DNA from: Dehalococcoidia bacterium
Lineage (GTDB): Bacteria > Chloroflexota > Dehalococcoidia > Lucifugimonadales > CBDFII01
DNA length: 64,000 nucleotides
Assembly (NCBI GenBank): GCA_965248115.1
Contig: CBDFII010000004.1
Location: 465,999-529,998, forward strand
Reading direction: 5' to 3'
In this document: positions 6,503 through 39,735 of the stretch, one piece after another
Numbering within the stretch: position 1 is the first letter of the stretch
Layout: each line of letters begins with the position of its first letter
The notes under the pieces: generated by a model
Told to the model about the DNA's origin: nothing
What the model saw: the letters and a program-made list of their open reading frames with translations, nothing else
Database searches by the model: none
Position numbers and translations under genes: made by a program

Positions 6503-7849
6503 CTAACCTTGATAGGCCACGTTAGCGCGATCCGTGACTAATCCCCTGGAACTGAGACGTATCAGAACCCCAGCAACACTTAGGAATAGGGCGGAAAAGC
6601 TCACGATCAGGAGGGCCAATCGCAAATCCCCCAAAGCCTCCTGAATCACGCCCGTCACCAGGGGACCCAGGGCTTGCCCCGCAGATACCATCGTCATAAT
6701 GAAACCTATGGCCACGGCAACCTCTCGGGGCCGGATGCCCGGGAGATGAAAGGGCACTGTCATTAGGATAGGCCAGAAGCCCCAAGCTATTCCATTGAAA
6801 AGCGCCAATAATACCAGGACAGGCAGGGAGCCGACCTGGGTCATGCTCACGTAGGTAGCCATCATGAGAATCCCCGATGTCAAGAGGATACGGTTCCCGT
6901 TTCCTGTGGTCATGAACAGGTGACTGAGCCGAAGTCCGGTGATACCCCCTACAAAGATGCCCAAAGCCAGGACTGCTCCGGACCATTGCAAAGATACCTG
7001 GTAAGTTTCCAGCATAAACGTTGGAAAGAAGGTAAGGAAAGAAGACCAAGCCACAGTCGCCCCCAGAAAGCCAAAGCCCGCCACCCAAAGGTCTCGATGA
7101 GAGAGAGCTCCCCTTAGGAGATTAGTCTTCTGAGAAACCTCCCGTCTCTGATACGCTCCAGTCACACGCTCCCTCCCCAGTGCTACCCAGAGGATGGTCA
7201 GCACAACGAAGAGAGCTCCAAAAAGATGAAGTATGGCTCTCCAGTCGTCGCCCAGTCCACGGAGGATAAAGGGTGCTCCCACCAACCCACCTCCCATAAC
7301 TAGGCCGAAGAGGGCATTACCCACGCTGTTGACCAGCACTATCTGCCTTGGGGGAAACCATTGTTGCATTAGGAGAGCTCGTGCTGGCTGCCTAGCGATA
7401 AGAGTGACTCCAAAAACAAGTCGGCCAACAAGAAGGATAGCAAAAGCAGGGGCCCAGCCCTGGAGAAAGAGGAAGAGAGTCCCCAGCACCATAGTGATTG
7501 TGGTGAGTATCTTTGGGCCGTACCGGGATGTCCACCAGCTCAATGGGATTGCCAGGGCCAGGTTGCCCCAAAGAGCGGACGAGCTCAGCAAACCCTGCTG
7601 GCTAGGTGATAGGTGAAGCTCTGAGCTTATAGCCGGCAAGAGAATCCCCAGGTTGAACACCACCATAAGACCAACCACACTGCTCAGGAGCCAAACTCCT
7701 ATGACTACCCAACGGTAGTTAGAAACATCCTCCAATACCCCTATTTTCTCAGACACCTGTCCCTCTAACGGCAATAGCTGCGATGAAAATAGCCCTTCAT
7801 CCTTCGACATTCTCAAGGTGATAGGATTGCCTCTGTCCCATGCACTCAT
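6503..7849 (-). CDS. MFS transporter
   Basis: 448-aa polytopic ORF with 12-TM-like hydrophobicity. The start is uncertain; an internal Met at about 7810 is also possible. Confidence 0.75.
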   Translation of the reverse strand: MSAWDRGNPITLRMSKDEGLFSSQLLPLEGQVSEKIGVLEDVSNYRWVVIGVWLLSSVVGLMVVFNLGILLPAISSELHLSPSQQGLLSSSALWGNLALAIPLSWWTSRYGPKILTTITMVLGTLFLFLQGWAPAFAILLVGRLVFGVTLIARQPARALLMQQWFPPRQIVLVNSVGNALFGLVMGGGLVGAPFILRGLGDDWRAILHLFGALFVVLTILWVALGRERVTGAYQRREVSQKTNLLRGALSHRDLWVAGFGFLGATVAWSSFLTFFPTFMLETYQVSLQWSGAVLALGIFVGGITGLRLSHLFMTTGNGNRILLTSGILMMATYVSMTQVGSLPVLVLLALFNGIAWGFWPILMTVPFHLPGIRPREVAVAIGFIMTMVSAGQALGPLVTGVIQEALGDLRLALLIVSFSALFLSVAGVLIRLSSRGLVTDRANVAYQG

Positions 7850-26739: not shown

Positions 26740-27945
26740 TTAAAGTAACAGAGTTGCCGGGTGCTCTAAGAGGTTTTTTACCTCCCCGATGAAGCGAGCC
26801 GCCTCGGCACCGTCAGCCACCCGGTGGTCCACAGAGATGGTGCCCTTCATTATCTGCGCTATCTTTATCTGGCCGTCCCGAACTACAGGACGCTCCATCA
26901 CCTTACCTACCGCCAGCACCGCCGAATTGGGGGGTAGGATAATGGCAGTGAAGCTCTCTACTTCGAACATACCCAGGTTGCTTATGCTGAAGGTGCTGCC
27001 CGTATACTCCTCAGCCCCAAGAGTCCCCTTCTGAGTCCGCTGGATGAGATCGCGGCTGGCCTTTGCGATCTCCACCAAGGACTTGTCCTGGCAGTTGTTG
27101 ATGGCGGGCACAATGAGCCCCTGCTCCAGGGCTATGGCGATCCCCATGTTTATACTGGAGTGCATCCGAAGATGGTCCTCGCTGAATGAGGCATTGAACT
27201 TGGGGTACTGCTCCAACACCTTGGTGACGGCCTTAATGAGGAGGTCGTTGACGCTTATACGTCCTTCGTTGTGAAGGGTCTGGTTGACCTGGTTGCGCAA
27301 CTCCAGGGCCGAGGTCATGTCGATTTCGGCGGTCACATAAAAGTGAGGGATCTGCTGCTTGCTCAGGGTAGTAACCCTGGCAATCGCCTGGCGCATGCGG
27401 GTTAGGTCAACTCGCTCCGCCGGTACCGCTTCCGCCGCTGGCGCTACGACCGCTGTATCTGCATAGGCTGTCAGATCACCCTCAGTAATGCGACCACCAG
27501 GTCCCGTGCCGGTGACCTTGGTAAGGTCTATGCCTTTCTCCCGAGCCAGCCTTCGGGCCAAGGGTGAGGCCCGTACCCCCCTCGCTGGGGATGGAGCTGC
27601 CACCGACTCCTTTTTCGCGGTTACAGGAGCTTCTGGAACAGCGGTCAAAACTTGGTCAGAGGACGCAGCTTGCTTGGTAAGCTTCTCCAGAGGAGGAATC
27701 TCCTCTTCAGCGTCGCCGATGACTGCAATAAGCTGCCCTACCGGCACCACCTTTCCCTCTTCCACTGCTATCTTGCGCAGCACCCCGGTGGCGTAGGCCT
27801 CCATCTCCACCACGGCCTTGTCCGTTTCTATTTCGGCGATTATCTCACCACGAGAGACCGAATCTCCCTCCCTCTTATGCCAACGGACGACGGTACCTTC
27901 TTTCATGTCGTAGCCCATTTGGGGCATGACAACGGTGGTAGCCAA
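26740..27945 (-). CDS. Dihydrolipoamide acyltransferase (E2) of a 2-oxoacid dehydrogenase complex
   Basis: N-terminal lipoyl domain (EIETDKAVVE), a peripheral subunit-binding domain (ASPLARRLAREKGIDL) and a catalytic domain with DHR..DG. Confidence 0.9.
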   Translation of the reverse strand: MATTVVMPQMGYDMKEGTVVRWHKREGDSVSRGEIIAEIETDKAVVEMEAYATGVLRKIAVEEGKVVPVGQLIAVIGDAEEEIPPLEKLTKQAASSDQVLTAVPEAPVTAKKESVAAPSPARGVRASPLARRLAREKGIDLTKVTGTGPGGRITEGDLTAYADTAVVAPAAEAVPAERVDLTRMRQAIARVTTLSKQQIPHFYVTAEIDMTSALELRNQVNQTLHNEGRISVNDLLIKAVTKVLEQYPKFNASFSEDHLRMHSSINMGIAIALEQGLIVPAINNCQDKSLVEIAKASRDLIQRTQKGTLGAEEYTGSTFSISNLGMFEVESFTAIILPPNSAVLAVGKVMERPVVRDGQIKIAQIMKGTISVDHRVADGAEAARFIGEVKNLLEHPATLLL

Positions 27946-27964
27946 ACTTCCCTCCTGCGCTTTA

Positions 27965-28948
27965 CTAGAGGCCGAGAACCGTCTTGACAGCTTCAGCTAC
28001 TCTACTGGAGTCGGGAATAGCAGCTTTCTCCAGCACCTGTGAATAAGGCATGGGCACCTCGTCCCCAGCTACCCGCTCTACAGGGGCGTCCAGATAATCG
28101 AAGGCGCAGTACTGGAGCTGGCTGGCCACCTCCGCCCCCACACCTCCCGTCTTCCATCCCTCCTCCACGATAACAGCCCGATGGGTCTTGCGTACCGACT
28201 GGATGACGGTCTCCATATCCAGGGGTCTGAGGGTCCGGAGGTCTACCACCTCGGCTTCTATACCCTCATCAGAAAGTTGGGCAGCAGCAGCCAGGGCAAC
28301 TTGGGTCATTAAGGAATAAGTGACGATGGTAACATCGCTGCCCGGGCGTTTTACGTCGGCCACCCCTAGGGGTATCTTGTAGTGGTCCTCGGCCACCTCG
28401 CCTAGGCTACTGTACAGGAGAATATGCTCAACGAACATAATGGGGTCCATCAGGTCACGACAAGAGCGAAAGAGACCAAGGGCGTCGTAAGGGGTGGAGG
28501 GGACCACTACCCGGAGACCCGGTACCGAGGCGAACCAGCCTTCTAGGCACTGGGAGTGAGTGGCGGCTAGTTGGGCTCCACCGCCAGTGACGGTACGCAT
28601 GATTAACGGAACCGATATCTGGCCTCCTGACATGTAGCGTAGCTTTGCGGCGTGGTTTACGATCTGGTCCATAGCGAGAAGGCTGAAGTTTATGGTCATT
28701 ATCTCCACCACGGGCCTGAGGCCTGCCATGGCTGCCCCGACCCCAGCACCTACAATGGCCGACTCGGAGAGGGGCGAGTCCTTGATACGTCGAGGCCCGA
28801 ACTCCTCTATGAGTCCCTTGGTCACGGCGTAGGCACCCCCATAGGGACCGATATCCTCCCCCATCAGGAACACTCGCTCGTCCTCGTCAAGGGCCTCCCG
28901 TAAAGCCCGTTGGACAGCTTCGCGATAGTTTATCTCCGCCATAGCCAC
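27965..28948 (-). CDS. 2-oxoacid dehydrogenase E1 component beta subunit
   Basis: 327 aa with transketolase-like pyrimidine-binding and C-terminal domains (F.MGEDIG.YGGA...T.GL). Substrate (pyruvate, acetoin or branched-chain) cannot be decided from the sequence alone. Confidence 0.9.
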   Translation of the reverse strand: MAMAEINYREAVQRALREALDEDERVFLMGEDIGPYGGAYAVTKGLIEEFGPRRIKDSPLSESAIVGAGVGAAMAGLRPVVEIMTINFSLLAMDQIVNHAAKLRYMSGGQISVPLIMRTVTGGGAQLAATHSQCLEGWFASVPGLRVVVPSTPYDALGLFRSCRDLMDPIMFVEHILLYSSLGEVAEDHYKIPLGVADVKRPGSDVTIVTYSLMTQVALAAAAQLSDEGIEAEVVDLRTLRPLDMETVIQSVRKTHRAVIVEEGWKTGGVGAEVASQLQYCAFDYLDAPVERVAGDEVPMPYSQVLEKAAIPDSSRVAEAVKTVLGL

Positions 28949-28951
28949 CTC

Positions 28952-29935
28952 TTATGTTGATGGGGCGTATACGTTTTCATGTAGAGCCGAGGGTGGGGGG
29001 AAGGGGCTTTCATCGGCGTACTTGACTGCCTCCACCACCTCTCTATCCACCAACTCCTCAATCTCCACCAGCTCTGGCTCCGAGGCTACCTCAAGTCCCA
29101 GCATCTTCTGTCTGAACAGTAGCAAAGGGTCTCGCTGCATCCAGTACTCAAGCTCTTCCCGGGACCGGTAGCCGGCGGGGTCGGCTATCGAGTGGCCACG
29201 GAACCTGTAGGTTAGCGCCTCGAGAAATATGGGCCCTTCACCGTTGCGAACGTGCTCTACGGCATCCAGGGTCTTCTCGCGCACCTCCAGCACGTCCATA
29301 CCATCTATCTGTCGCCCTGGCATCCGATAGGCATCTGCAAGTTTATAGATCTCCTCGTGGATGGCTACCGTAGCAGAAGCAGCGGCGCCCATGCCGTAGA
29401 GGTTGTTCTCGCAGAAGAATATAACAGGTAGCTTCCAGATGGAGGCCAAGTTCATGGATTCGTGGAACTCCCCCTCGTTAAGGGCCCCATCCCCCAGGAA
29501 GCACAGAACCACCCGGTTCTCCTCATTGTAGCTGACGGACAACGCCAGACCAGTAGCGATGGGCAACTGACCACCTACGATGGCGTAGCCCCCCATGAAG
29601 TTTTTAGAGACATCGAAGAGGTGCATAGAGCCACCCTTTCCCTTGCTGCAACCCGTTTCCTTCCCGAATAGCTCGGCCATCACCACTTTGCTTTCCAGCC
29701 CCCGGGCAAGGGCCTGGCCATGGTCTCGATAGTGGGTCACCACATAATCCTCGGGTCTAAGGGCGGAGATGGCCCCTACTGCGATGGCCTCCTCACCAAT
29801 GTATAGATGCAGGAAGCCTCGGATCTTTTGCATCATGTACTGACGGCTGCACTCCTCCTCGAACGCTCGCAGCAGACGCATCTGGCGGTACAAATCTAGG
29901 AGCTGGGTCTTATCTATTCGCTCCTGTACCTTCAT
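28952..29935 (-). CDS. 2-oxoacid dehydrogenase E1 component alpha subunit (TPP-binding)
   Basis: YRDHG..LARG, GKGGSMH and the GDGA.NEG TPP motif. ATG at 29935 is preferred over the GTG at 29950, which lies inside the AAGGTGGGG RBS. Confidence 0.9.
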   Translation of the reverse strand: MKVQERIDKTQLLDLYRQMRLLRAFEEECSRQYMMQKIRGFLHLYIGEEAIAVGAISALRPEDYVVTHYRDHGQALARGLESKVVMAELFGKETGCSKGKGGSMHLFDVSKNFMGGYAIVGGQLPIATGLALSVSYNEENRVVLCFLGDGALNEGEFHESMNLASIWKLPVIFFCENNLYGMGAAASATVAIHEEIYKLADAYRMPGRQIDGMDVLEVREKTLDAVEHVRNGEGPIFLEALTYRFRGHSIADPAGYRSREELEYWMQRDPLLLFRQKMLGLEVASEPELVEIEELVDREVVEAVKYADESPFPPPSALHENVYAPST

Positions 29936-29980
29936 ATTATTTGACCCCACCTTTCTAACGTCTAACCTTCATCCCTGTAA

Positions 29981-31369
29981 TCATACATGTATAGCCTGGC
30001 CATTGGCAGCCAGGGCTGCCTCCTTTAAGGCCTCTGAGATAGTAGGGTGGGCGTGAACCATCCACCCCAACTCCAGGGTGGTGCCCTCCAGCAGCCTCAC
30101 CATAGACACCTCCGCCAGTAGCTCCGTAACCTCGGGGCCAATCATGTGAGCCCCGATAATCTCTCCCGCCCTCCCCTCCACCACCAGCTTTATCATTCCA
30201 TTGCTGTCGCCGATAGCCAGCGCCTTCCCGCTGGCCTGCAAGGGAAACTTGCCCACCTTAACATCATATCCCTGCTCTCGGGCCTCCTTCTCGGTGAGAC
30301 CGAAACTAGCCACCTGGGGTATGCAGTAGGTCGCCCTTGGCATGGAAATGTAATCCAGGGGCTGGGTCTCCATACCGGCGATGTGCTCCACCGCCGCTAT
30401 CCCCTGGGCCGTTGCCACGTGGGCCAGCAGCAGAATACCCGTCACATCTCCAATAGCGTACACTCCTGGTACGTTAGTAGCCATTGTGCCGTCAATCTTT
30501 ATAAAGCCCTTTTCAGTGACCACATCCATCCGCTCCAGCCCCATATTCTCAGTGTTACCCTTAACGCCAACGGCCACGAGCACCTTCTGGCAGTTCAGAT
30601 CCTCCTCTCCATCGGGGGTCTCAAGCTTTACCGCGGCTCCACCATCGGTAGGGACCATCCCTGAAACTTTGGAGCGAGTCCTCACAGTGATACCCTGAGA
30701 GGAGAGGGATTGCTCCAACTGCTGGCTTATCTCCTCATCCTCCTTGGGAAGCAAATGAGGAAGTAGCTCCACCACCGTCACCTTCACCCCGTAAGCGTTG
30801 TAAAGGTAGGCGAACTCTACCCCCGTGGCCCCTCCCCCTACAATGACGATAGACTGGGGTAACTCCCGCAGCTCCAGGGCCTCGCGGCTGGTAATAACCA
30901 GCTCTCCATCGATGGGCAAGGGAGGAATGGTGCTGGCACGTGCCCCTGTGGCGATGACAACGTTTCTGGTACTTAACACTCTACCGTCTGGAGAGAGCTC
31001 GACAGAATGGCTGTCCCGCAGCCTGGCTGTCCCCGGTATGTGCTCCACTCCGTTCTTCTTTAAAAGAAAAGCGACGCCTTGGGTAAGGCGCCGCACTACC
31101 TGGCGACTTCGATCAATGGCCTTCCCGTAGTCTACCCGAAGATTATCAAAATAAAACCCGTAGGCTTCCGAGTTGCGCAGTAGGGATAGAACCTCTGCGT
31201 TTTTTATCAGGGCCTTACTGGGAATGCACCCCCAGTTTAGACACACTCCACCCAATTCGTCCCTCTCCACCACCGCCGTCTTCAGACCCAGTTGTCCCGC
31301 TCGAATACCAGCGACGTAACCCCCCGGCCCACCTCCAATTACAACCACATCGTAGTCTGCGTCCATCAC
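29981..31369 (-). CDS. lpdA: Dihydrolipoyl dehydrogenase (E3)
   Basis: GGGPGGY FAD-binding motif, the redox-active disulfide GGVCLNWGCIPSK, and the C-terminal HAHPT.SE dimerisation motif. Confidence 0.9.
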   Translation of the reverse strand: MMDADYDVVVIGGGPGGYVAGIRAGQLGLKTAVVERDELGGVCLNWGCIPSKALIKNAEVLSLLRNSEAYGFYFDNLRVDYGKAIDRSRQVVRRLTQGVAFLLKKNGVEHIPGTARLRDSHSVELSPDGRVLSTRNVVIATGARASTIPPLPIDGELVITSREALELRELPQSIVIVGGGATGVEFAYLYNAYGVKVTVVELLPHLLPKEDEEISQQLEQSLSSQGITVRTRSKVSGMVPTDGGAAVKLETPDGEEDLNCQKVLVAVGVKGNTENMGLERMDVVTEKGFIKIDGTMATNVPGVYAIGDVTGILLLAHVATAQGIAAVEHIAGMETQPLDYISMPRATYCIPQVASFGLTEKEAREQGYDVKVGKFPLQASGKALAIGDSNGMIKLVVEGRAGEIIGAHMIGPEVTELLAEVSMVRLLEGTTLELGWMVHAHPTISEALKEAALAANGQAIHV

Positions 31370-31617: not shown

Positions 31618-31821
31618 GTGCCGAAATTAGGGCCGCTGGAACTGGCCATAATTCTGGTCATCGTGCTATTGATCTTTGGGGTAGGAAGACTACCTCAGGT
31701 AGGCTCCTCCTTGGGCCGCAGCATGCGGGCCTTCAAGCGGGCCATTACCGGCGAGGATGAGGGTGGTGTAGAGGAGGAGGTTAAGGAGCCCGCACCCCGA
31801 ACAAGGAAGAAAAAGGGCTGA
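31618..31821 (+). CDS. tatA: Twin-arginine translocase TatA/E family protein
   Basis: 67 aa with an N-terminal TM helix plus amphipathic helix (GPLELAIILVIVLLIFGVGRLPQVGSSLGRSMRAFKRA). GTG start. Confidence 0.85.
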   Translation: MPKLGPLELAIILVIVLLIFGVGRLPQVGSSLGRSMRAFKRAITGEDEGGVEEEVKEPAPRTRKKKG

Positions 31822-31997
31822 GCACGCTATCTACCTGTTTCCTACTAGCCAGTAATTGATAGTTTCTTGTTAACCCTTTCCTGATTAGTAGATTAGAAAT
31901 CGTACTGCCCTCCCGTATCTTGTCGAAGAGTGAGCGAACAACTACATGAGTCATTAGTAATCAGGATCGGCTTTAGTATTTTCTCCGCTCTGTTACC

Positions 31998-32768
31998 TCA
32001 GGAGCCTGGCGTTTCAGCTACTTGCGCAACCTCTTTAGTTCTACCCACCCCACCCAGCTTGGCCAGCCAAATTCCCGCCTCGTAGAGCACGATGAGGGGC
32101 ACAGCCACGAGGATCTGGTTTATGGGGTCGAAGGTGGGTGTTATTATGGCACCCAAGATGAAGGCTACCACAACCCAGTAACGGCGCCATCTGGCTAAAG
32201 AGCGGTGGGAAACGATCCCCAGCCTGGCCAGAAGGAACATCACCAAAGGGGTCTCGAACACCACCCCCATCCAGAACAGCAGCCTCACCATCAGGTTGAC
32301 ATAGTTGCCTATCCTGATCATGGGCGTGGCTATGTCGGAGCCGAGCTGAAGCAGGAAGTTAATGGCAGGGGGAATGAGGACAAAGTAGGCAAAGGCAGCG
32401 CCCCCAACAAAGGCCATAAGGACCCCGGGCATAAAGGCCAGAAGGTAGCGACGCTCCCTGGTGGTGAGCCCGGGCGCTACGAACATTATTACCTGATATA
32501 GGATCACTGGAGAAGCCAGTACCACGCCCGACATTAAGGCTACTTTAAATGTAACGGCTAGCATCTCCGTGACCTCGGTGAACACCAGACCAGCGCCACC
32601 CGCAGCAGGAGAGTTCAGAGTTTCGGCAGGGCGGAGGAGAAAACGGATAATGTGTTTATAAAATATGAAGGATATAGAGGTGGCAACCACCCACGTTAAA
32701 GCGGCGATGAGAAGCCTAATCCGTAGCTCATCCAGATGCTCACGCAGCGAGAGAGACCTGTCCTTCAA
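31998..32768 (-). CDS. tatC: Twin-arginine translocase subunit TatC
   Basis: 256 aa with 6 TM segments and the N-terminal L.EHL.ELR.RL motif. Confidence 0.9.
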   Translation of the reverse strand: MKDRSLSLREHLDELRIRLLIAALTWVVATSISFIFYKHIIRFLLRPAETLNSPAAGGAGLVFTEVTEMLAVTFKVALMSGVVLASPVILYQVIMFVAPGLTTRERRYLLAFMPGVLMAFVGGAAFAYFVLIPPAINFLLQLGSDIATPMIRIGNYVNLMVRLLFWMGVVFETPLVMFLLARLGIVSHRSLARWRRYWVVVAFILGAIITPTFDPINQILVAVPLIVLYEAGIWLAKLGGVGRTKEVAQVAETPGS

Positions 32769-33007
32769 CGCTCTCCCTCTGATCTATGCCCACCCGGATT
32801 GTCATCTTGACCGATATCGCTTCGATCTTTAGACGTCGATTCTATATCATCTAAGGTATCGGAGAGGTTACCCACCGTCTGCTGCAACTCCCGCACTATC
32901 CGTCCTGCGTTACGAGCTGCATGTATGGTCTGGGCAGGCCCCAGTATTAACAGACCCACCAGCACCACTATCAAAAGTTCCAGGGGCCCTATACCTAAGA
33001 AGTCCAA
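32765..33007 (-). CDS. TatA/TatB-like translocase protein
   Basis: LDFLGIGPLELLIVVLVGLLILGP... is a TatA/B-type N-terminus. A TTG start at 33007 preceded by GGGGAG is preferred over the track start at 33043. It overlaps the tatC start by 4 nt. Confidence 0.65.
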   Translation of the reverse strand: MDFLGIGPLELLIVVLVGLLILGPAQTIHAARNAGRIVRELQQTVGNLSDTLDDIESTSKDRSDIGQDDNPGGHRSEGER

Positions 33008-34914
33008 GTTCTCCCCTCTCTCGCTTGAGCGCACAGGGAGCACTTGGAAGGGTCTTCGATAGAAATCCTATCATTTTGAACTAGGTTATTCTCCTTAAGA
33101 AGCTCCAATAGAGTGCAAAGGGGCAGCCCCATGATGTTGGTATAGCAACCCTCTATCCGAGCCGCGGGGCGCAATACCGAATCTTGGACAGCGTAAGCGC
33201 CTGCTTTGTCCAAAGGCTCGCCGGACGCCACGTAATCCTCCAGCTCTTGAGACGAGAATTCCCGCATAAAGACCGTGCTAGTCCGGCTGGCAGTGACCGA
33301 TCGCCCTGTGGCACTATCTATCGCCGCCACCCCAGTTACCACCCGATGCTCGCTCCCTCGCAGCTTTTGTAGCATTTGCCTGGCTTGCGTCGAGTCCTCA
33401 GGTTTGCCCAGAACCTCACCATCCAACAACACCACCACCGAGTCCGCTCCCACCACAAAGCCTCTGTCAAACCCTTGCGCCACCGATGAGGCCTTAGCTA
33501 GTGCCAGACGTACTACCAGCTCCTCCGGTGTCTCCCCGGGGCGAACCTCTTCTTCCACATGGGGGTCCACCGTTCTAAACGGTAGTCTCAGAAGGGGCAG
33601 AAGTTGCTGGCGGCGAGGCGAGGTCGAAGCCAGCACCAGGGGCAGCTTATCTACACTTTTGGATTCAGGGCCAGCCTCAGGCATCGCAGAAGATTTGGAT
33701 GAATCCAGGTCGACGGAACCGCTAGTCCCCTGATAAGCCAGAGTGGCTACGCACTCCACGAGATGAGTCTGAGGGAACATATCGATAGGTTGCACCTGCT
33801 CCAGAGAAAAGGGGCCATCGCAAAGCAAGCGCAGATCTCGAGCCAGGGTAGCAGGGTCACACGAGACGTACGCTACACGTGTGGGCCCCAGTTGGGCCAG
33901 AGTTTCCAGAGTCTTGGGATGACAGCCCGTTCTGGGAGGGTCCAGGATCACCCCATCTGGCCTTTGAGCCATTCCCGCCAGCACCTCTTCCGTCTTTCCC
34001 TGCAAAAACTCTACGTTACTTATTCCCTCAGCGTTCACCAAGGCGTCTTGCACAGCTGACTTCGACTCCTCTATGGCAATGACCCTCTCAGTATAAGGAG
34101 CCAGCAGGATGGCGAAGGTGCCCACCCCAGCATAGGCATCCACCAGGAGCTCACTTCCCGTTAACCTTAGGGCCTCTTTCACTACCTCCACCATCCTTTC
34201 GGCCTGAGCAGTGTTCACCTGAAAAAAGGAAGAGGAGGAAATGCGAAAGGAGCGACCCGCCAGGGTGTCCCAGTAATGTTTCTGACCTGAAGGAAGGGGG
34301 AAATCGCCACTACGAAAGGTGGGCTGAATAAGAAAGTCATCGGTAGCCTCACCGTGGCGGATGGATGCTTGGGTGGTCTCACCACACTTGCCTTGTAGCT
34401 GCTCCAGGGCACCGTTGATCCAGGGATTCATCAGCATGCACTGACTGATGACCACACGTTGCTGCGTCTCTCGGTTCACGTAACACAGCTCACCATTCGC
34501 CCCCACCGTCAGACGTGCATGGTTTCGATAGTAATATTGCTTAGGTGACAGTATGACTGGTGCTACCGGTGGCCCGGAGAAGCCTCCAATGCGGCAAAGG
34601 GCGTCTACCACTTTCTGGCGCTTTAGCTCCAATTGGTGCTGATAATCTATGTGCTGCCACTGGCACCCGGTGCATGGACCAAAGTAGGGACATGGAGCCT
34701 CAACACGTTGAGAGGAAGGACTAAGCACCTCCACCACTCTAGCCGCTACATACTTGCGGCGGCTTTTAAGCACCTCTGCTATCACCTCTTCACCAGGCAC
34801 TCCTCCAAAGACGAACATTAGCTGGCCATCGTAGGAGGCATGGGCCTCTCCCAGTCTCCCCCAACCATCAAGTAGCAGCCGTACTCGCTCCCCAACCTCT
34901 AATCGTCCATTCAT
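32995..34914 (-). CDS. Fusion protein: RlmD/RumA-type m5U RNA methyltransferase (TRAM + Fe-S + SAM MTase) with C-terminal Maf nucleotide pyrophosphatase
   Basis: Single 639-aa frame. Residues 1-400 carry CPYFGPCTGCQWQH, DAYAGVGTF, DPPRTG and YVSCDPATLARD. Residues ~430-639 carry LVLASTSPRRQQLL, GADSVV and AGAYAVQD, which are Maf hallmarks. No stop codon between the two parts. Confidence 0.8.
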   Translation of the reverse strand: MNGRLEVGERVRLLLDGWGRLGEAHASYDGQLMFVFGGVPGEEVIAEVLKSRRKYVAARVVEVLSPSSQRVEAPCPYFGPCTGCQWQHIDYQHQLELKRQKVVDALCRIGGFSGPPVAPVILSPKQYYYRNHARLTVGANGELCYVNRETQQRVVISQCMLMNPWINGALEQLQGKCGETTQASIRHGEATDDFLIQPTFRSGDFPLPSGQKHYWDTLAGRSFRISSSSFFQVNTAQAERMVEVVKEALRLTGSELLVDAYAGVGTFAILLAPYTERVIAIEESKSAVQDALVNAEGISNVEFLQGKTEEVLAGMAQRPDGVILDPPRTGCHPKTLETLAQLGPTRVAYVSCDPATLARDLRLLCDGPFSLEQVQPIDMFPQTHLVECVATLAYQGTSGSVDLDSSKSSAMPEAGPESKSVDKLPLVLASTSPRRQQLLPLLRLPFRTVDPHVEEEVRPGETPEELVVRLALAKASSVAQGFDRGFVVGADSVVVLLDGEVLGKPEDSTQARQMLQKLRGSEHRVVTGVAAIDSATGRSVTASRTSTVFMREFSSQELEDYVASGEPLDKAGAYAVQDSVLRPAARIEGCYTNIMGLPLCTLLELLKENNLVQNDRISIEDPSKCSLCAQAREGRTWTS

Positions 34915-35041
34915 CCACTAGCTCCTTGGGTAAACTATAACCCAACCCCTATTGTATGCCAAGGGAAACGTACCTGGACAGTAAAGCTAGATAGGAGGCC
35001 ATAAAACGTGACTGCGACCAATAAGGGGACTAATCGCTAAG

Positions 35042-35152: not shown

Positions 35153-35482
35153 ATGGCCAAACCCTATGCTGTGAGTGACGCCGATTTTTCGGAGAATGTG
35201 GAAAATGCCAAGGTGCCTGTGCTGGTTGACTTCTGGGCCGAGTGGTGTATGCCCTGCAAGATGATCGCTCCAATAGTGGACGAGCTGGCTGAGGAGTACG
35301 ACGGCAAGGTCAACTTTGTCAAGGTGGACGTAGATTCCAGCCCTTCCACTGCTACCAAGTACGGTGTGCGCAGCATCCCTACCCTGCTGATCTTCAAGGA
35401 GGGCAAGCCCGTTCAGCAGGTGGTGGGGGCTGTGCCCAAAAGCGCCCTTAAGGAGAGAATCGAGGCCGCGCTGACCTTGTAG
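35153..35482 (+). CDS. trxA: Thioredoxin
   Basis: 109 aa with VLVDFWAEWCMPCK (WCxPC active site), an IPTL cis-Pro loop and a GGGAGGAG RBS. Confidence 0.9.
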   Translation: MAKPYAVSDADFSENVENAKVPVLVDFWAEWCMPCKMIAPIVDELAEEYDGKVNFVKVDVDSSPSTATKYGVRSIPTLLIFKEGKPVQQVVGAVPKSALKERIEAALTL

Positions 35483-35507: not shown

Positions 35508-35603
35508 GGGGGTGGATGGGGCCCGGTGGCTCTTGCGGACTTCAAATCCGTCGTGCCTCGTTAACCCGGGGTAGGTGGGTTCGACTCCCTCCCACTCCCG
35601 CCA
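35508..35603 (+). tRNA. selC: tRNA-Sec (anticodon UCA)
   Basis: 96 nt folded by hand. 8-bp acceptor stem (GGGGGUGG/CCACUCCC), 6-bp D stem with 4-nt loop (GGGGCC-CGGU-GGCUCU), anticodon loop CUUCAAA and a long variable arm (GCCUCG-UUAACC-CGGGGU). The 5-bp T arm has a UUCGACU loop, followed by G-CCA. The layout is colinear with the E. coli selC tRNA. Confidence 0.9.
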
Positions 35604-35907: not shown

Positions 35908-37077
35908 ATGACCCTTCCAGCTAGATTAAAGTTCGGTGTCTTTCTGGCACCCTTCCACCGAGTTGGTGAGAACCCCACCCTCGCCCTGGAACGCGACCTG
36001 GAGCTCCTCCAGTGGCTCGATATGTTGGGCTTCGATGAGGCTTACATCGGGGAGCACCACAGCGCAGGCTGGGAGACCATCCCATCTCCTGAGCTCTTCA
36101 TCGCCACCGCCGCTGAGCGCACCCGACACATTCGCCTGGGCACCGGAGTGACCAGCCTCCCCTACCACCACCCCTTCATGGTGGCCAGCCGTATGGTGCT
36201 GCTAGACCACCTCACACGGGGTCGAGTGATCCTGGGAGTGGGGCCTGGGGCCCTGGCCCCCGACGCCTATATGTTGGGTATAGACCCCGAGCGTCAACGG
36301 GACATGATGGACGAGGCCCTGGGAATAATCATCCGCCTCTTTGAAGAGACGGAGCCCGTCACCTACAAAAGCGATTGGTTCGAACTGCGGGAGGCTGTTC
36401 TTCAGCTACGACCTTACCAGCAACCCACAATACCTATTGTTACAGCAGCAACCCAATCGCCCGCCGGAGTGAGGCTGGCAGGCAAGCACGGCCTGACAGT
36501 TCTCACCATGATTGCGCCGGGAGTTGGTTCGAATGCGCAAGAGGTGACGCCGAAGGACCTTTGGGCCATCGCCGAGGAGTCAGCGGCGGAGCATGGTAAA
36601 GAGGTACGTCGCGAAGACTGGGGGCTAGTAATAAGCGTACATCTGGCCGAGAGCCGTAAAGAGGCCATCGAGGATATCCGTTTGGGAGGAGCCCGCCTGC
36701 TCACCGAGTACTCCGGCGAGACTCTAGGTCAGCCACTCCCCGATTGCTCCTTCGATAATATAGCGGACCACATGATCGAAAACAACAGCTGGGTCGTGGG
36801 CACCCCAGACGATTGTATCGAAGCTATCTACCGCCTTGACGAGGAGAGCGGTGGCTATGGAAGATTTATGGTGCGGGTGGAGGACTGGGCCCCCAGGGGA
36901 AAGGTGCTGCACAGCTACGAGCTGCTGGCCCGCTACGTCATGCCCCATTTCCAGGGCAGCTTGACAGGCATCATCAACTCCAACCGCTGGGTCAGTGAAA
37001 AGCGAGAGATGCTCCAGGAACATCGACGCCAGGGCATAGAGCGGGCCCGGGCCGCCTACTACGCCCGCAGCCGATAG
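35908..37077 (+). CDS. LLM-class flavin-dependent monooxygenase/oxidoreductase
   Basis: 389 aa. KFGVFL.PFH, GFDEAYIGEHHS and R.RLGTGV.SLPYHHP are typical of the luciferase-like family. GGAAGGAGA RBS. Confidence 0.85.
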   Translation: MTLPARLKFGVFLAPFHRVGENPTLALERDLELLQWLDMLGFDEAYIGEHHSAGWETIPSPELFIATAAERTRHIRLGTGVTSLPYHHPFMVASRMVLLDHLTRGRVILGVGPGALAPDAYMLGIDPERQRDMMDEALGIIIRLFEETEPVTYKSDWFELREAVLQLRPYQQPTIPIVTAATQSPAGVRLAGKHGLTVLTMIAPGVGSNAQEVTPKDLWAIAEESAAEHGKEVRREDWGLVISVHLAESRKEAIEDIRLGGARLLTEYSGETLGQPLPDCSFDNIADHMIENNSWVVGTPDDCIEAIYRLDEESGGYGRFMVRVEDWAPRGKVLHSYELLARYVMPHFQGSLTGIINSNRWVSEKREMLQEHRRQGIERARAAYYARSR

Positions 37078-37163
37078 GATAACCCAAGGTCAGATAAGAT
37101 TATCTGCAATCATTTACGTACAATACGTATAAATAAGTTCGACACAAGACACGAGGTGAAGGG

Positions 37164-38582
37164 TTGGCAGATAACGACATAGCCTTGATGGCGCACCTGC
37201 TGCGGCGTGCCGGCTTCGGGTCCACCAGAGACGAGCTTGAGGCCTACTGTGCCAAGGGGTACGAGGCCACCGTAGAGGAGCTACTTCACCCTGAGACCCG
37301 GCCTCCTGCCATTGAAGAAGACCTGGTGGGCCGGTACTTACCCGAGTTTTCGGACTTGGGAGCCTTCGAGTCCAGCAGAGGATATTGGATGTACCGGATG
37401 ATTAACACCAAGCGTCCTCTGGAGGAGAAGATCGCCCTCTTCTGGCACGGAGTCCTGTGCTCAGGCGACTCTAAGGTAGATTCCCCTAGAATGATGAGCA
37501 TTCAGGTAGACATGTTTCGCCAGCATGGCCTCGATAGCTTCCGCGATCTGCTGGTCAAGCTGTCCAGGAACCCCACCATGGTGTACTTCCTAGACAATAG
37601 CGAGAGCCACAAAAACGCTATCAACGAGAACTATGGGCGGGAGCTTTTGGAGCTCTTCTCCATGGGCGTGGGGATGGATGGCCACCCCAACTACACCGAG
37701 GACGACGTTAAGGCCTGTTCCCGTGCCTTCACCGGCTGGAACGTAGCTCCCACCCTTCCAGTATTCCCTTTTGGCCGCACCCCCTGGCAGTTCCTGTACA
37801 ACTACTCGGACCACGACGAGGGTGTGAAAACGTTCCTGGGAGAGACGGGACGCTGGAACGGCGAGGATGTCATCGACATCATCGCGCAGCAGCCAGCTAC
37901 CGCCCGGTTCGTCTGCCGTCACCTGTACAACTTCTTCGTGGCCGATGAGGTTCAGGTTCCAGCATGGCAGGACACACCACCCCAGGACCCCGAGGCGATA
38001 CGTACGCTGGAGAAGGCCTTCGTGGAGCACAACTACGATATCCGTTCGGTATTGCGGGTGCTGTTCAACTCCGACTTCTTCAAGGAGGCCCGTTTCGCCA
38101 AGGTCAAGAGCCCTGCAGAGGTGGTGGCGGGCACCATGCGGCTGGTCCAGGACTTTACCTCCCCCAAGTTTGGCCTCCACAACATCGCCATAGAGGACAC
38201 CTATATGGGTCAAACCCTGCTTAACCCCCCCAGCGTGGAGGGATGGCACACAGGCAGGGAGTGGATCGACAGCGGCACTCTGGTGGAGCGCATCAACTTC
38301 GTTGCTGACCAGGTGGGCAATACCGACTTACCCGGTGTGAAGGCTATCGTCGATCGCCTTGCTGCCCAGGGCGCCATGTCTCCCCAGCAGTTCGTGGAGA
38401 GCTGCCTTGACCTGATGGGCTGCGTGGAGGTCACCGAGAAGACCCGCGACCAGCTCATCTCCCACGCCACCCGGGCTGGCGAGCTGCGAGGGGATAGCGG
38501 AGAGCACAAAGAGCACTTCGCCTCCCAGGTGGGGGAGATGCTCCAGCTCATCGTGTCCACCGGCGAGTACCAGTTCGGATAA
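37164..38582 (+). CDS. DUF1800 family protein
   Basis: 472 aa. ALMAHLLRRAGFG, LFWHG, NENYGRELLELFSMG and SRAFTGW are DUF1800 hallmarks. No signal peptide. TTG start. Confidence 0.85.
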   Translation: MADNDIALMAHLLRRAGFGSTRDELEAYCAKGYEATVEELLHPETRPPAIEEDLVGRYLPEFSDLGAFESSRGYWMYRMINTKRPLEEKIALFWHGVLCSGDSKVDSPRMMSIQVDMFRQHGLDSFRDLLVKLSRNPTMVYFLDNSESHKNAINENYGRELLELFSMGVGMDGHPNYTEDDVKACSRAFTGWNVAPTLPVFPFGRTPWQFLYNYSDHDEGVKTFLGETGRWNGEDVIDIIAQQPATARFVCRHLYNFFVADEVQVPAWQDTPPQDPEAIRTLEKAFVEHNYDIRSVLRVLFNSDFFKEARFAKVKSPAEVVAGTMRLVQDFTSPKFGLHNIAIEDTYMGQTLLNPPSVEGWHTGREWIDSGTLVERINFVADQVGNTDLPGVKAIVDRLAAQGAMSPQQFVESCLDLMGCVEVTEKTRDQLISHATRAGELRGDSGEHKEHFASQVGEMLQLIVSTGEYQFG

Positions 38583-38601
38583 GCTAAAAGGAGGCACTTC
38601 C

Positions 38602-39735
38602 ATGGCATCCTCAAAGGACCCCGTCCTGGCGGTTATCTCCCTGGCGGGGGGTAACGATTTCATGAACACCATCATCCCCTACAACAATCCCCTGTATAGG
38701 GACTACCGCCCCAACCTGGGCATCCCCGAAGAGGAGATTCTGCCCATCGATGACCAGGTGGCCTTCAACCCCAACCTGGAGCCCCTCAAGGAGCTCTACG
38801 ATCAGGGTAAGGTGGCCATCATCCTGGGGGTGGGCTATCCCAACCCCAACCGCTCTCACTTCCGCTCCATGGACATATGGCAGACCTCGGAGCCCGACAA
38901 GGTAGGCACCGAGGGCTGGCTGGGCCGGGCCATTAGGGAGCTGGACCCCAACAAGGAGAATGTGCTCACGGGGGTCAACTTCGGCCGGGGCCTGCCCAGG
39001 GCCATGGCAGCACCGGGGGTACCCGTGGCCTCGGTGGGTAACCTGGCCACCTACGGCGTTCTCACCGGCATCGCCGGTGAGGAGCAGCGGGCCGAGGCCC
39101 TGGAGGTCTTCTCCCGTATGTATGCCCCCGCCATCGGCACAGGCCCGGTGATAGACTACCTGTGGCAGACGGGGATGGATGCCCTCAAGGGCGCCGATAT
39201 CCTGAAGACGGCCCCTGAGAAGTATACCTCCAATATAGAGTATGGCCCCGATGTGGTATCCCAGGGGCTCAAGGGCATGGCGCAGGTGCACACCGCCGAC
39301 CTGGGCTCCCGTATCCTCTTCACCACCTCTCCCAACAACGCCTTCGACACCCACGCCAACCAGGCCCCCATCCACACCATGCTGTGGCGTAACCTCTCCA
39401 GGGCCATCGCCGACTTCTACCAGGACCTGAAGGAGCACGACCACAACCAGGAGGTGACCCTCCTCATGTTCAGCGAGTTCGGGCGCCGGGCCAGGGACAA
39501 CGGCACGGGCACCGACCACGGCACGGGGGGTGTGGCCTTCGTCATCGGCGACCGGGTCAAGGGGGGACTGTACGGTGAGTACCCCTCTCTGGAGCAGGAC
39601 AAGCTGGAGGACGAGGGGGACCTGCTCCACAACGTAGATTTCCGCAGCATGTACTCCACCATTCTGGAGAGGGGGCTGGGTCTGGACCCAGTGCCCATCG
39701 TGGGGGGTAACTTCGAGCAGTTGGACTTTCTGTAG
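38602..39735 (+). CDS. DUF1501 family protein (sulfatase/alkaline-phosphatase-like fold)
   Basis: 377 aa. GGNDFMN, YPNPNRSHFRSMDIW, GWLGR, FDTHANQ and SEFGRR..DNGTGTDHG match DUF1501. It starts directly at the conserved core with no twin-arginine leader. Confidence 0.85.
   Translation: MASSKDPVLAVISLAGGNDFMNTIIPYNNPLYRDYRPNLGIPEEEILPIDDQVAFNPNLEPLKELYDQGKVAIILGVGYPNPNRSHFRSMDIWQTSEPDKVGTEGWLGRAIRELDPNKENVLTGVNFGRGLPRAMAAPGVPVASVGNLATYGVLTGIAGEEQRAEALEVFSRMYAPAIGTGPVIDYLWQTGMDALKGADILKTAPEKYTSNIEYGPDVVSQGLKGMAQVHTADLGSRILFTTSPNNAFDTHANQAPIHTMLWRNLSRAIADFYQDLKEHDHNQEVTLLMFSEFGRRARDNGTGTDHGTGGVAFVIGDRVKGGLYGEYPSLEQDKLEDEGDLLHNVDFRSMYSTILERGLGLDPVPIVGGNFEQLDFL

Follow-up and report, generated by a model that had tools for sequence, protein, structure and literature searches.

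A predicted RumA/RlmD-type RNA methyltransferase fused in frame to a YhdE-type Maf pyrophosphatase in Dehalococcoidia, and a possible link through 5-methyluridine

Since the early 1990s, Maf proteins have figured as inhibitors of cell division. In 2013 they were shown to be pyrophosphatases that prefer modified pyrimidine nucleoside triphosphates (NTPs) in vitro, and a general house-cleaning model was stated for them; in the same work, fusions of Maf to a methyltransferase (human ASMTL) and archaeal Maf/methyltransferase gene pairs were pointed out as suggesting that the two are functionally related (Tchigvintsev et al. 2013, PMC3899018). The subject here is a gene that joins an RlmD/RumA-type 5-methyluridine (m5U) RNA methyltransferase to a YhdE-type Maf in one reading frame. 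It lies in a 64,000-nucleotide stretch of DNA from a Dehalococcoidia bacterium (Chloroflexota; assembly GCA_965248115.1, contig CBDFII010000004.1, positions 465,999 to 529,998), referred to below as the window, and all coordinates are those of the window. No paper discussing a RumA/RlmD-Maf fusion was found in open-access full text or bioRxiv (the "Maf" of PMC3239186 refers to the unrelated MafB toxins of Neisseria), and the architecture is found in hundreds of public-database clusters, labelled almost always RlmD alone.

The closest solved structures to the methyltransferase half by sequence are Streptococcus pneumoniae RlmCD, Pyrococcus abyssi TrmU54, and Escherichia coli RumA. RumA (RlmD), which makes m5U1939 in 23S rRNA (PDB 1UWV/2BH2), has the same TRAM domain, central domain with a four-Cys [4Fe-4S] cluster, and Rossmann catalytic domain; its four cluster ligands, nucleophilic Cys, and general-base Glu all align with residues of the window protein, and the folds match with a template modelling (TM) score of 0.76, but the two share only about 25 % identity and RumA lacks a C-terminal extension. 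The strongest matches in sequence and fold are RlmCD of S. pneumoniae/Bacillus subtilis, which modifies both U747 and U1939 to m5U, and TrmU54 (PDB 5XJ1 and 2JJQ). For the Fe-S central domain of the window protein, TrmU54 matches best, whereas S. pneumoniae RlmCD lacks a Cys at three cluster-ligand positions and the fourth position lies outside the alignment. TrmU54 acts on tRNA, and neither it nor RlmCD is fused to a Maf.

For the other half, the reference proteins are E. coli YhdE and B. subtilis Maf (BSU28050; PDB 4P0E, 1EX2, and 4HEB), which carry the same S-R-E-K-D-K core and R-T/S-Q motif as the window Maf but are stand-alone proteins of about 190 amino acids without its C590, C600, and CxxC tail. 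Their genes adjoin cell-shape or RNase genes and are not known to sit beside an m5U writer; E. coli yhdE lies in an mreBCD-yhdE-rng operon, beside RNase G. Human ASMTL (PDB 2P5X) resembles the window protein in theme, being a Maf joined to a predicted methyltransferase. In ASMTL, however, the Maf domain is N-terminal and its partner is an ASMT-like domain of the small-molecule O-methyltransferase type, whose substrate is unknown, whereas the window Maf is C-terminal and its partner is a PF05958 RNA uracil-C5 methyltransferase with TRAM and Fe-S domains. No O-methyltransferase family in Pfam matched the window protein, and the ASMTL Maf domain is a distant match to the window Maf (E 1e-20); the resemblance to ASMTL-type fusions is thus one of theme and not of membership.

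The fusion gene is a single unbroken open reading frame (ORF) of 639 amino acids, with an ATG start and a TAG stop at 32997-32995. From N to C terminus, TRAM and [4Fe-4S] domains come first, followed by the RumA/RlmD-type m5U methyltransferase; a disordered linker then leads to the YhdE-type Maf pyrophosphatase, and the protein ends in a tail rich in Cys. Its parts and expression signals are as follows, SAM being S-adenosylmethionine and pLDDT the predicted local distance difference test.

32995..34914, minus strand: the whole fusion gene, RlmD/RumA-type m5U RNA methyltransferase plus YhdE-type Maf, 639 amino acids and a TAG stop
34732..34902, minus strand: TRAM (OB-fold RNA-binding) domain, residues 5-61, a Pfam match with beta-strands at high pLDDT
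34285..34716, minus strand: central domain, residues 67-210, with putative [4Fe-4S] ligands C75, C81, C84, and C159, invariant and aligned to RumA
33739..34284, minus strand: SAM-dependent Rossmann catalytic domain, residues 211-392, with DAYAGVGTF motif I, DPPRTG, C352 in SCDP, and E387
33634..33738, minus strand: inter-domain linker, residues 393-427, not conserved, of variable length among homologues, and predicted to be disordered
33085..33633, minus strand: Maf nucleotide pyrophosphatase domain of the YhdE subfamily, residues 428-610, with S432, R434, R435, E455, K474, D491, S492, K504, and Q577
32998..33084, minus strand: C-terminal tail, residues 611-639, with C625-x2-C628, not confidently modelled
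34922..34927, minus strand: Shine-Dalgarno sequence AAGGAG, 7 nucleotides 5' of the ATG at 34914
34934..34962, minus strand: promoter-like site TTGGCA-17-TATAGT directly upstream of the fusion gene, with 10 of 12 consensus matches and identified by consensus match only

An initial annotation of this DNA had claimed an uninterrupted 639-residue frame containing TRAM, a Cys cluster, a SAM-dependent m5U methyltransferase, a linker, and a complete Maf. The ORF listing agrees and places the frame on the minus strand, which had not been stated, and the profile matches and Cys alignment confirm each component. The linker had been put at about 30 residues near 33600..33700; it is there, but it is slightly offset (33634..33738) and nearer 35 residues long.

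On its sequence, the N-terminal half belongs to the RumA/RlmD-type SAM-dependent RNA uracil-C5 methyltransferases (COG2265, TIGR00479). The TRAM domain (PF01938, residues 5-61) scores 22.2 bits against a Pfam gathering cut-off of 21, the tRNA_U5-meth_tr domain (PF05958, residues 223-392) scores 76.9 bits against 23, and the NCBIfam model TIGR00479 (rumA) scores 307 bits against 183.55; the E. coli-type equivalog NF009639 gives 224 bits, below its cut-off of 458. Residues C75, C81, C84, and C159, invariant in 31 homologues, align with the RumA [4Fe-4S] ligands C81, C87, C90, and C162 and are putative cluster ligands. The nucleophile C352 (in YVSCDP) and the general base E387 (in QTHLVE) align with RlmCD motifs, and the Glu-to-Gln change in PDB variants of RlmCD falls exactly at the position equivalent to E387; in RumA, the corresponding residues are C389 and E424. 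In the 31-sequence alignment, D259, G263, G265, D325, P326, R328, C352, and E387 are invariant. The fold matches RlmCD and RumA with TM-scores of 0.74-0.77, normalised to the target, over a superposition of about 430-450 columns. Because a dual-site rRNA enzyme (RlmCD) and a tRNA enzyme (TrmU54) are both among the nearest relatives, target specificity is not readable from homology alone; 23S rRNA is the most likely substrate and tRNA a possible one. As a separate observation, residue 385 is Leu in the window protein (QTHLVE; window 33757-33762, residues 385-386), whereas at least 90 % of the homologues have His (consensus QTHHVE).

The C-terminal half is a complete Maf domain. PF02545 matches residues 425-608 with 188.1 bits against a cut-off of 27 and covers profile positions 1-186 of 187, TIGR00172 (maf) scores 170.5 bits against 117.15, alignment to B. 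subtilis Maf and E. coli YhdE is full-length at about 40 % identity (E about 1e-33 to 1e-36), and the fold matches both at TM 0.87-0.91. Maf proteins are defined by an S-R-E-K-D-K motif (S10, R13, E33, K52, D70, and K82 of YhdE); the YhdE subfamily, with R-T-Q (R12, T71, and Q153), acts on dTTP, UTP, CTP, m5UTP, m5CTP, and pseudo-UTP, whereas the YceF subfamily has W-Q-E and acts on m7GTP (PMC3899018). The corresponding core residues S432, R435, E455, K474, D491, and K504 are invariant in 31 fusion homologues, and the core is likewise kept in all reverse-order forms described below and in the adjacent-gene forms, except at one locus (L019), which has Gly at the Glu position. At the subfamily positions, the window protein has R434, S492, and Q577; across the 31 sequences, R434 is present in at least 90 %, position 492 is always Ser or Thr, and Q577 is invariant. 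The proposed readers of the thymine/uracil base (the Gln153 equivalent and Arg) and of the ribose (Ser) are therefore in place, and there is no YceF-type aromatic residue, Gln, or Glu at these positions, so that a YceF-type, m7GTP-specific Maf is ruled out by the subfamily motif. The residues of the window Maf thus match a subfamily shown to hydrolyse dTTP, UTP, m5UTP, and pseudo-UTP (PMC3899018), activities that the initial annotation had named for Maf/YhdE-type enzymes, and the Maf module is predicted to convert such pyrimidine NTPs to the nucleoside monophosphate and pyrophosphate. Both halves are very probably active enzymes of the stated types.

Independent assemblies were used in place of reads to check the frame. 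In a search of 5.8 billion proteins, all 120 of the clusters listed carry both PF05958 and PF02545 (53-75 % identity, 597-699 amino acids), many of them on megabase contigs, and both domains lie in a single ORF in seven GTDB species-representative genomes. In the 31-sequence fusion alignment, neither half varies at its catalytic residues. The recurrence of the same single-ORF architecture supports, indirectly, the absence of a hidden stop or frameshift. Two separate genes are present in several related Dehalococcoidia genomes, which would be expected if an indel or a miscalled stop in this contig had merged neighbours during sequencing or assembly, but such an artefact is rejected as exceedingly improbable: the architecture is identical in those 120 independent clusters and seven genomes, relatives 75 % and 68 % identical share the same 42-residue spacing between the halves, and the linker is in frame without a stop. 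Production of a separate Maf from an internal start, which had been raised as a way in which the fusion could prove illusory, also finds no support. The only in-frame ATG or GTG codons in or beside the linker, at 33759, 33684, and 33636, all lack a Shine-Dalgarno motif, whereas a strong one precedes the fusion gene itself and all five of the neighbouring genes whose upstream sequence was checked. We therefore regard the fusion as real with near certainty.

The two halves appear to be physically independent. Mean identity to the window protein across the 31-sequence alignment is 63 % for the methyltransferase and 57 % for Maf but only 17 % for the linker, which is also 45 % gapped; of its roughly 35 residues, 25 (398-422) are predicted to be disordered. 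The spacing from Glu387 to Ser430 ranges from 16 to 42 residues in 116 fusion clusters, with a median of 21, and the window protein falls in the longest class (42 residues) together with its 75 % and 68 % identical relatives. An AlphaFold2 model built with the 31-sequence alignment has a mean pLDDT of 84 and a predicted TM-score of 0.63; it is confident for both modules, drops below a pLDDT of 50 at residues 398-422 and 614-639, and predicts no interface between the modules. A variable, disordered linker, together with the viability of both domain orders, points to two catalytic modules acting independently and not to a composite active site.

The origin of the fusion can be traced in part through its relatives. 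Among the best 80 GTDB loci, with up to 6 kb of sequence taken on each side where the contig allowed, seven encode single-ORF fusions, 13 encode separate, adjacent rlmD and maf genes in that order on the same strand, and 60 have no maf in the sequence examined. All seven fused loci are from metagenome-assembled genomes (MAGs) of Dehalococcoidia, SAR202, or unclassified Chloroflexota, whereas the two-gene loci belong to other Dehalococcoidia, to Ktedonobacteraceae (cultured Ktedonobacter robiniae SOSP1-30 among them), and to one MAG each of Chloroflexia and Anaerolineaceae. Two of the two-gene junctions (L022 and L027) are 4-nucleotide GTGA overlaps, and others are gaps of 3-176 nucleotides with maf having its own start codon. 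In a Ktedonobacteraceae MAG (L015; DAOTTJ010000445.1, positions 7195-7200), rlmD and maf are in frame and split only by a TAG followed directly by ATG; this two-gene state is one point mutation away from fusion. The occurrence of separate adjacent genes in other Chloroflexota, including the 4-nucleotide overlaps and the pair split by one in-frame stop, indicates that the fusion derives from an operon. In a rough neighbour-joining tree of the methyltransferase domain, computed without support values, the fused forms group together inside Dehalococcoidia and are nested among adjacent-gene forms, the simplest reading being that an old Chloroflexota rlmD-maf operon fused once. The fusion would then have arisen in a Dehalococcoidia sublineage by loss of the stop codon or of a short intergenic spacer. 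Genes for tatA/B and tatC follow rlmD(-maf) in all seven fused loci and in six adjacent-gene loci (13 Dehalococcoidia loci); the loci from Ktedonobacteria, Chloroflexia, and Anaerolineaceae lack them and retain just the rlmD-maf pair.

The same two families have also been joined in the opposite order. An exhaustive search of 1.84 billion representatives at 50 % identity returned seven forward-order fusions and six reverse-order proteins of ~635-648 amino acids, in which Pfam finds Maf (residues 2-185), TRAM, and methyltransferase in that sequence. Reverse-order members include P0212, P0214, P0224, P0244, P0264, P0297, and P0303 (loci L081-L085); they group into at least six clusters when the identity threshold is 50 % and at least 120 when it is 90 %, and a search with P0224 gave at least 120 full-length clusters at 40-46 % identity. 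Their sources include candidate division WOR-1/Saganbacteria, Omnitrophica, Aminicenantes/Saccharicenans, Ratteibacteria, Acidobacteriota, and Clostridiales. The WOR-1 protein P0303 recurs unchanged on 20 contigs (NCBI, JGI, and ENA samples), where its gene context is an unrelated one. These proteins are labelled RlmD or hypothetical protein, with one JGI product name reading "RumA/MAF protein". Like the window protein, the reverse-order fusions (P0303 and P0224, for example) combine a YhdE-type signature with the Fe-S and catalytic motifs of the methyltransferase, keeping CPHFGxCGGC and the SCNP nucleophile motif. They differ from it in domain order, in phylum, in sharing only about 33-36 % identity with it, in lacking the four-Cys feature of its Maf, and in having no long disordered linker, with about 18-20 residues leading from the last Maf helix into TRAM. 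The reverse-order fusion is an independent fusion event.

Linkage of this kind is otherwise rare. In 80 metagenomic loci encoding RumA-type relatives of the reverse-order family, Maf was found only in the two fused ones (0/78 of the others), and no separate maf-rlmD operon that could have been a precursor of the reverse fusion was present among the 80. Taken with the 60 GTDB loci above, maf is absent from 138 of 138 other RumA-type loci (0/60 and 0/78) in the sequence examined per locus, and the background proximity of rlmD and maf is thus essentially zero. Within the 64-kb window, no second copy of maf or rlmD was found.

Our preferred explanation, to which we assign a probability of roughly 0.55 in its full form including the m5U coupling, is that the gene encodes one bifunctional protein in which a flexible linker holds together two modules, each catalysing its reaction independently. 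The N-terminal one, comprising TRAM, [4Fe-4S], and Rossmann domains, would write 5-methyluridine in structured RNA; turnover of that RNA would release m5UMP, which kinases could raise to m5UTP. RNA polymerases could mis-incorporate m5UTP, and the Maf module would remove it and prevent its random re-incorporation. Fusion would guarantee 1:1 co-expression, and possibly co-localisation, of the writer and the sanitiser, and translational coupling would likewise fix their proportion. A pathway-level link of this kind, which accords with the house-cleaning model of 2013, is the most economical account of why the two are joined. Published kinetics are in keeping with this scheme: among six tabulated substrates of E. 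coli YhdE, m5UTP has the highest kcat/KM (5.7e5 s-1 M-1), and it has the lowest KM for B. subtilis Maf (4.7 uM) (PMC3899018). Functional coupling as such, which the initial annotation had proposed, gains comparative support because the linkage recurs independently, having been made twice in opposite orders and kept also as an operon across Chloroflexota classes, against a near-zero background. The specific m5U-sanitising mechanism that it had also proposed stays at the level of inference, and as the selective link between the halves we put it a little short of an even chance. Its further remark that neither gene by itself makes the coupling obvious calls for a qualification, as Maf-methyltransferase fusions and gene pairs had already been noted by Tchigvintsev et al. 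(2013). That RumA-type m5U writers and YhdE-type Mafs constitute a selected "write-and-sanitise" module, linked covalently at least twice and in both orders and present in Chloroflexota also as an operon, is a broader proposition that we advance more tentatively still.

Several observations weigh against the preferred explanation, and they are partly those on which its chief rival draws. With pseudo-UTP, m5CTP, dTTP, and UTP, enzymes of the YhdE type show about the activity that they have with m5UTP (PMC3899018), so the Maf partner could equally serve the pyrimidine pool in general. In E. coli, m5UTP, like the other modified NTPs, was below detection, in vivo effects were detectable only for dTTP and UTP, and these two were concluded to be what YhdE acts on in vivo (PMC3899018). 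The Dehalococcoidia pair is embedded in a longer conserved string, rlmD-maf-tatA/B-tatC, so that common descent by itself accounts for some of the conserved neighbourhood. In many Chloroflexota and most other bacteria, no maf accompanies rlmD in the sequence examined, and linkage is therefore not obligatory. The unconserved, flexible linker and the lack of a predicted interface leave no structural sign of channelling or allostery in the model, where co-expression is the only coupling on offer. The dTTP and UTP result in E. coli, the longer conserved string, and the linker with no predicted interface would suit a neutral fusion in which two housekeeping genes, neighbours in an ancestral Chloroflexota operon, were merged by a small mutation while the halves continued with unrelated jobs, namely rRNA methylation on the one hand and general dTTP/UTP pool control or cell-division delay on the other; the junctions of unfused relatives, one mutation from fusion as GTGA overlaps or as an in-frame TAG directly followed by ATG, show how easily that could happen. 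We consider such a history unlikely, although it is the strongest of the alternatives, as unrelated phyla acquired, independently, a fusion of the same families with the order reversed and conserve that architecture on a large scale, Ktedonobacteria, Chloroflexia, and Anaerolineaceae keep the rlmD-maf pair without conserving the tat neighbours, and the absence of maf from all 138 other RumA-type loci makes chance adjacency rare.

It is also conceivable that Maf acts in cis for the methyltransferase, whether as a dimerisation scaffold, as a nucleotide-pool sensor tuning rRNA methylation or ribosome biogenesis, or on RNA-linked nucleotides near the modification site. Maf dimers form through residues 155-183 of the B. 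subtilis enzyme (PMC3899018). Exactly the equivalent stretch holds the Chloroflexota-specific C590 and C600, which 116 of 119 fusion clusters retain along with the CxxC tail. The position of E. coli yhdE beside the RNase G gene points the same way. The NTP-binding, metal-binding, and catalytic residues are all invariant, however, which argues that ordinary pyrophosphatase chemistry is maintained, and the free linker length and workable reverse order argue against a fixed geometry between the modules; a role in cis is accordingly judged improbable, well behind neutral fusion.

The Cys residues just mentioned form a feature of the Chloroflexota Maf in their own right. C590, C600, and a C-terminal CxxC/CxxxC (or CxxH) make up a four-ligand pattern (window 32998-33145, residues 590-639), all four positions of which are present in those 116 of 119 forward-fusion clusters. 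The pattern is also found in most separately encoded Chloroflexota Mafs (the Maf ORFs of L007-L034) but is absent from the reverse-order fusions, B. subtilis Maf, and YhdE. With C590 and C600 falling in the segment equivalent to the Maf dimer interface, a Zn or Fe-S site at the dimer region is a plausible candidate, and such a four-ligand site may add metal or redox control in the Chloroflexota version.

The surroundings of the fusion gene in the window are as follows.

32765..33007, minus strand: tatA/B-like gene, likely starting at TTG 33007 after GAGAGGGGAG, within the final codons of the fusion gene; GTG 33043 is where the mechanical ORF begins
31998..32768, minus strand: tatC, the next gene in the same conserved string
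31618-31821, plus strand: second TatA/B-family gene, with a strong Pfam match
26740-31369, minus strand: operon for a 2-oxoacid dehydrogenase complex (E1 alpha, E1 beta, E2, and E3), an ordinary flank
35153-35482: thioredoxin gene
35508-35603, plus strand: selenocysteine tRNA with anticodon TCA (68.5 bits in Rfam; ARAGORN finds it as well)
35908-39735, plus strand: luciferase-like monooxygenase and a DUF1800/DUF1501 pair, an ordinary flank

Two TatA/B-family genes therefore flank tatC (window 31618-33043), the minus-strand copy directly after the fusion gene being the weaker match. The selenocysteine tRNA lies 26 nucleotides downstream of the thioredoxin gene and is the only tRNA in the window.

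The immediate consequence of these findings is for annotation: hundreds of entries named "23S rRNA (uracil(1939)-C(5))-methyltransferase RlmD" contain a second enzyme of which the name gives no sign. What is new with respect to the earlier Maf-methyltransferase combinations is that the partner here is an RNA uracil-C5 methyltransferase whose predicted product, once recycled and phosphorylated, is a preferred Maf substrate. The repeated and independent tying of Maf to an m5U writer amounts to a natural experiment on the unsettled in vivo role of Maf proteins, and it points at m5UTP sanitation. It also supplies concrete proteins for study, including the operon version in cultured Ktedonobacter. 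If the m5U link is true, it would be the first genomic (Rosetta-stone) evidence for RNA-turnover-derived m5UTP (ribo-TTP) as a physiological substrate of Maf.

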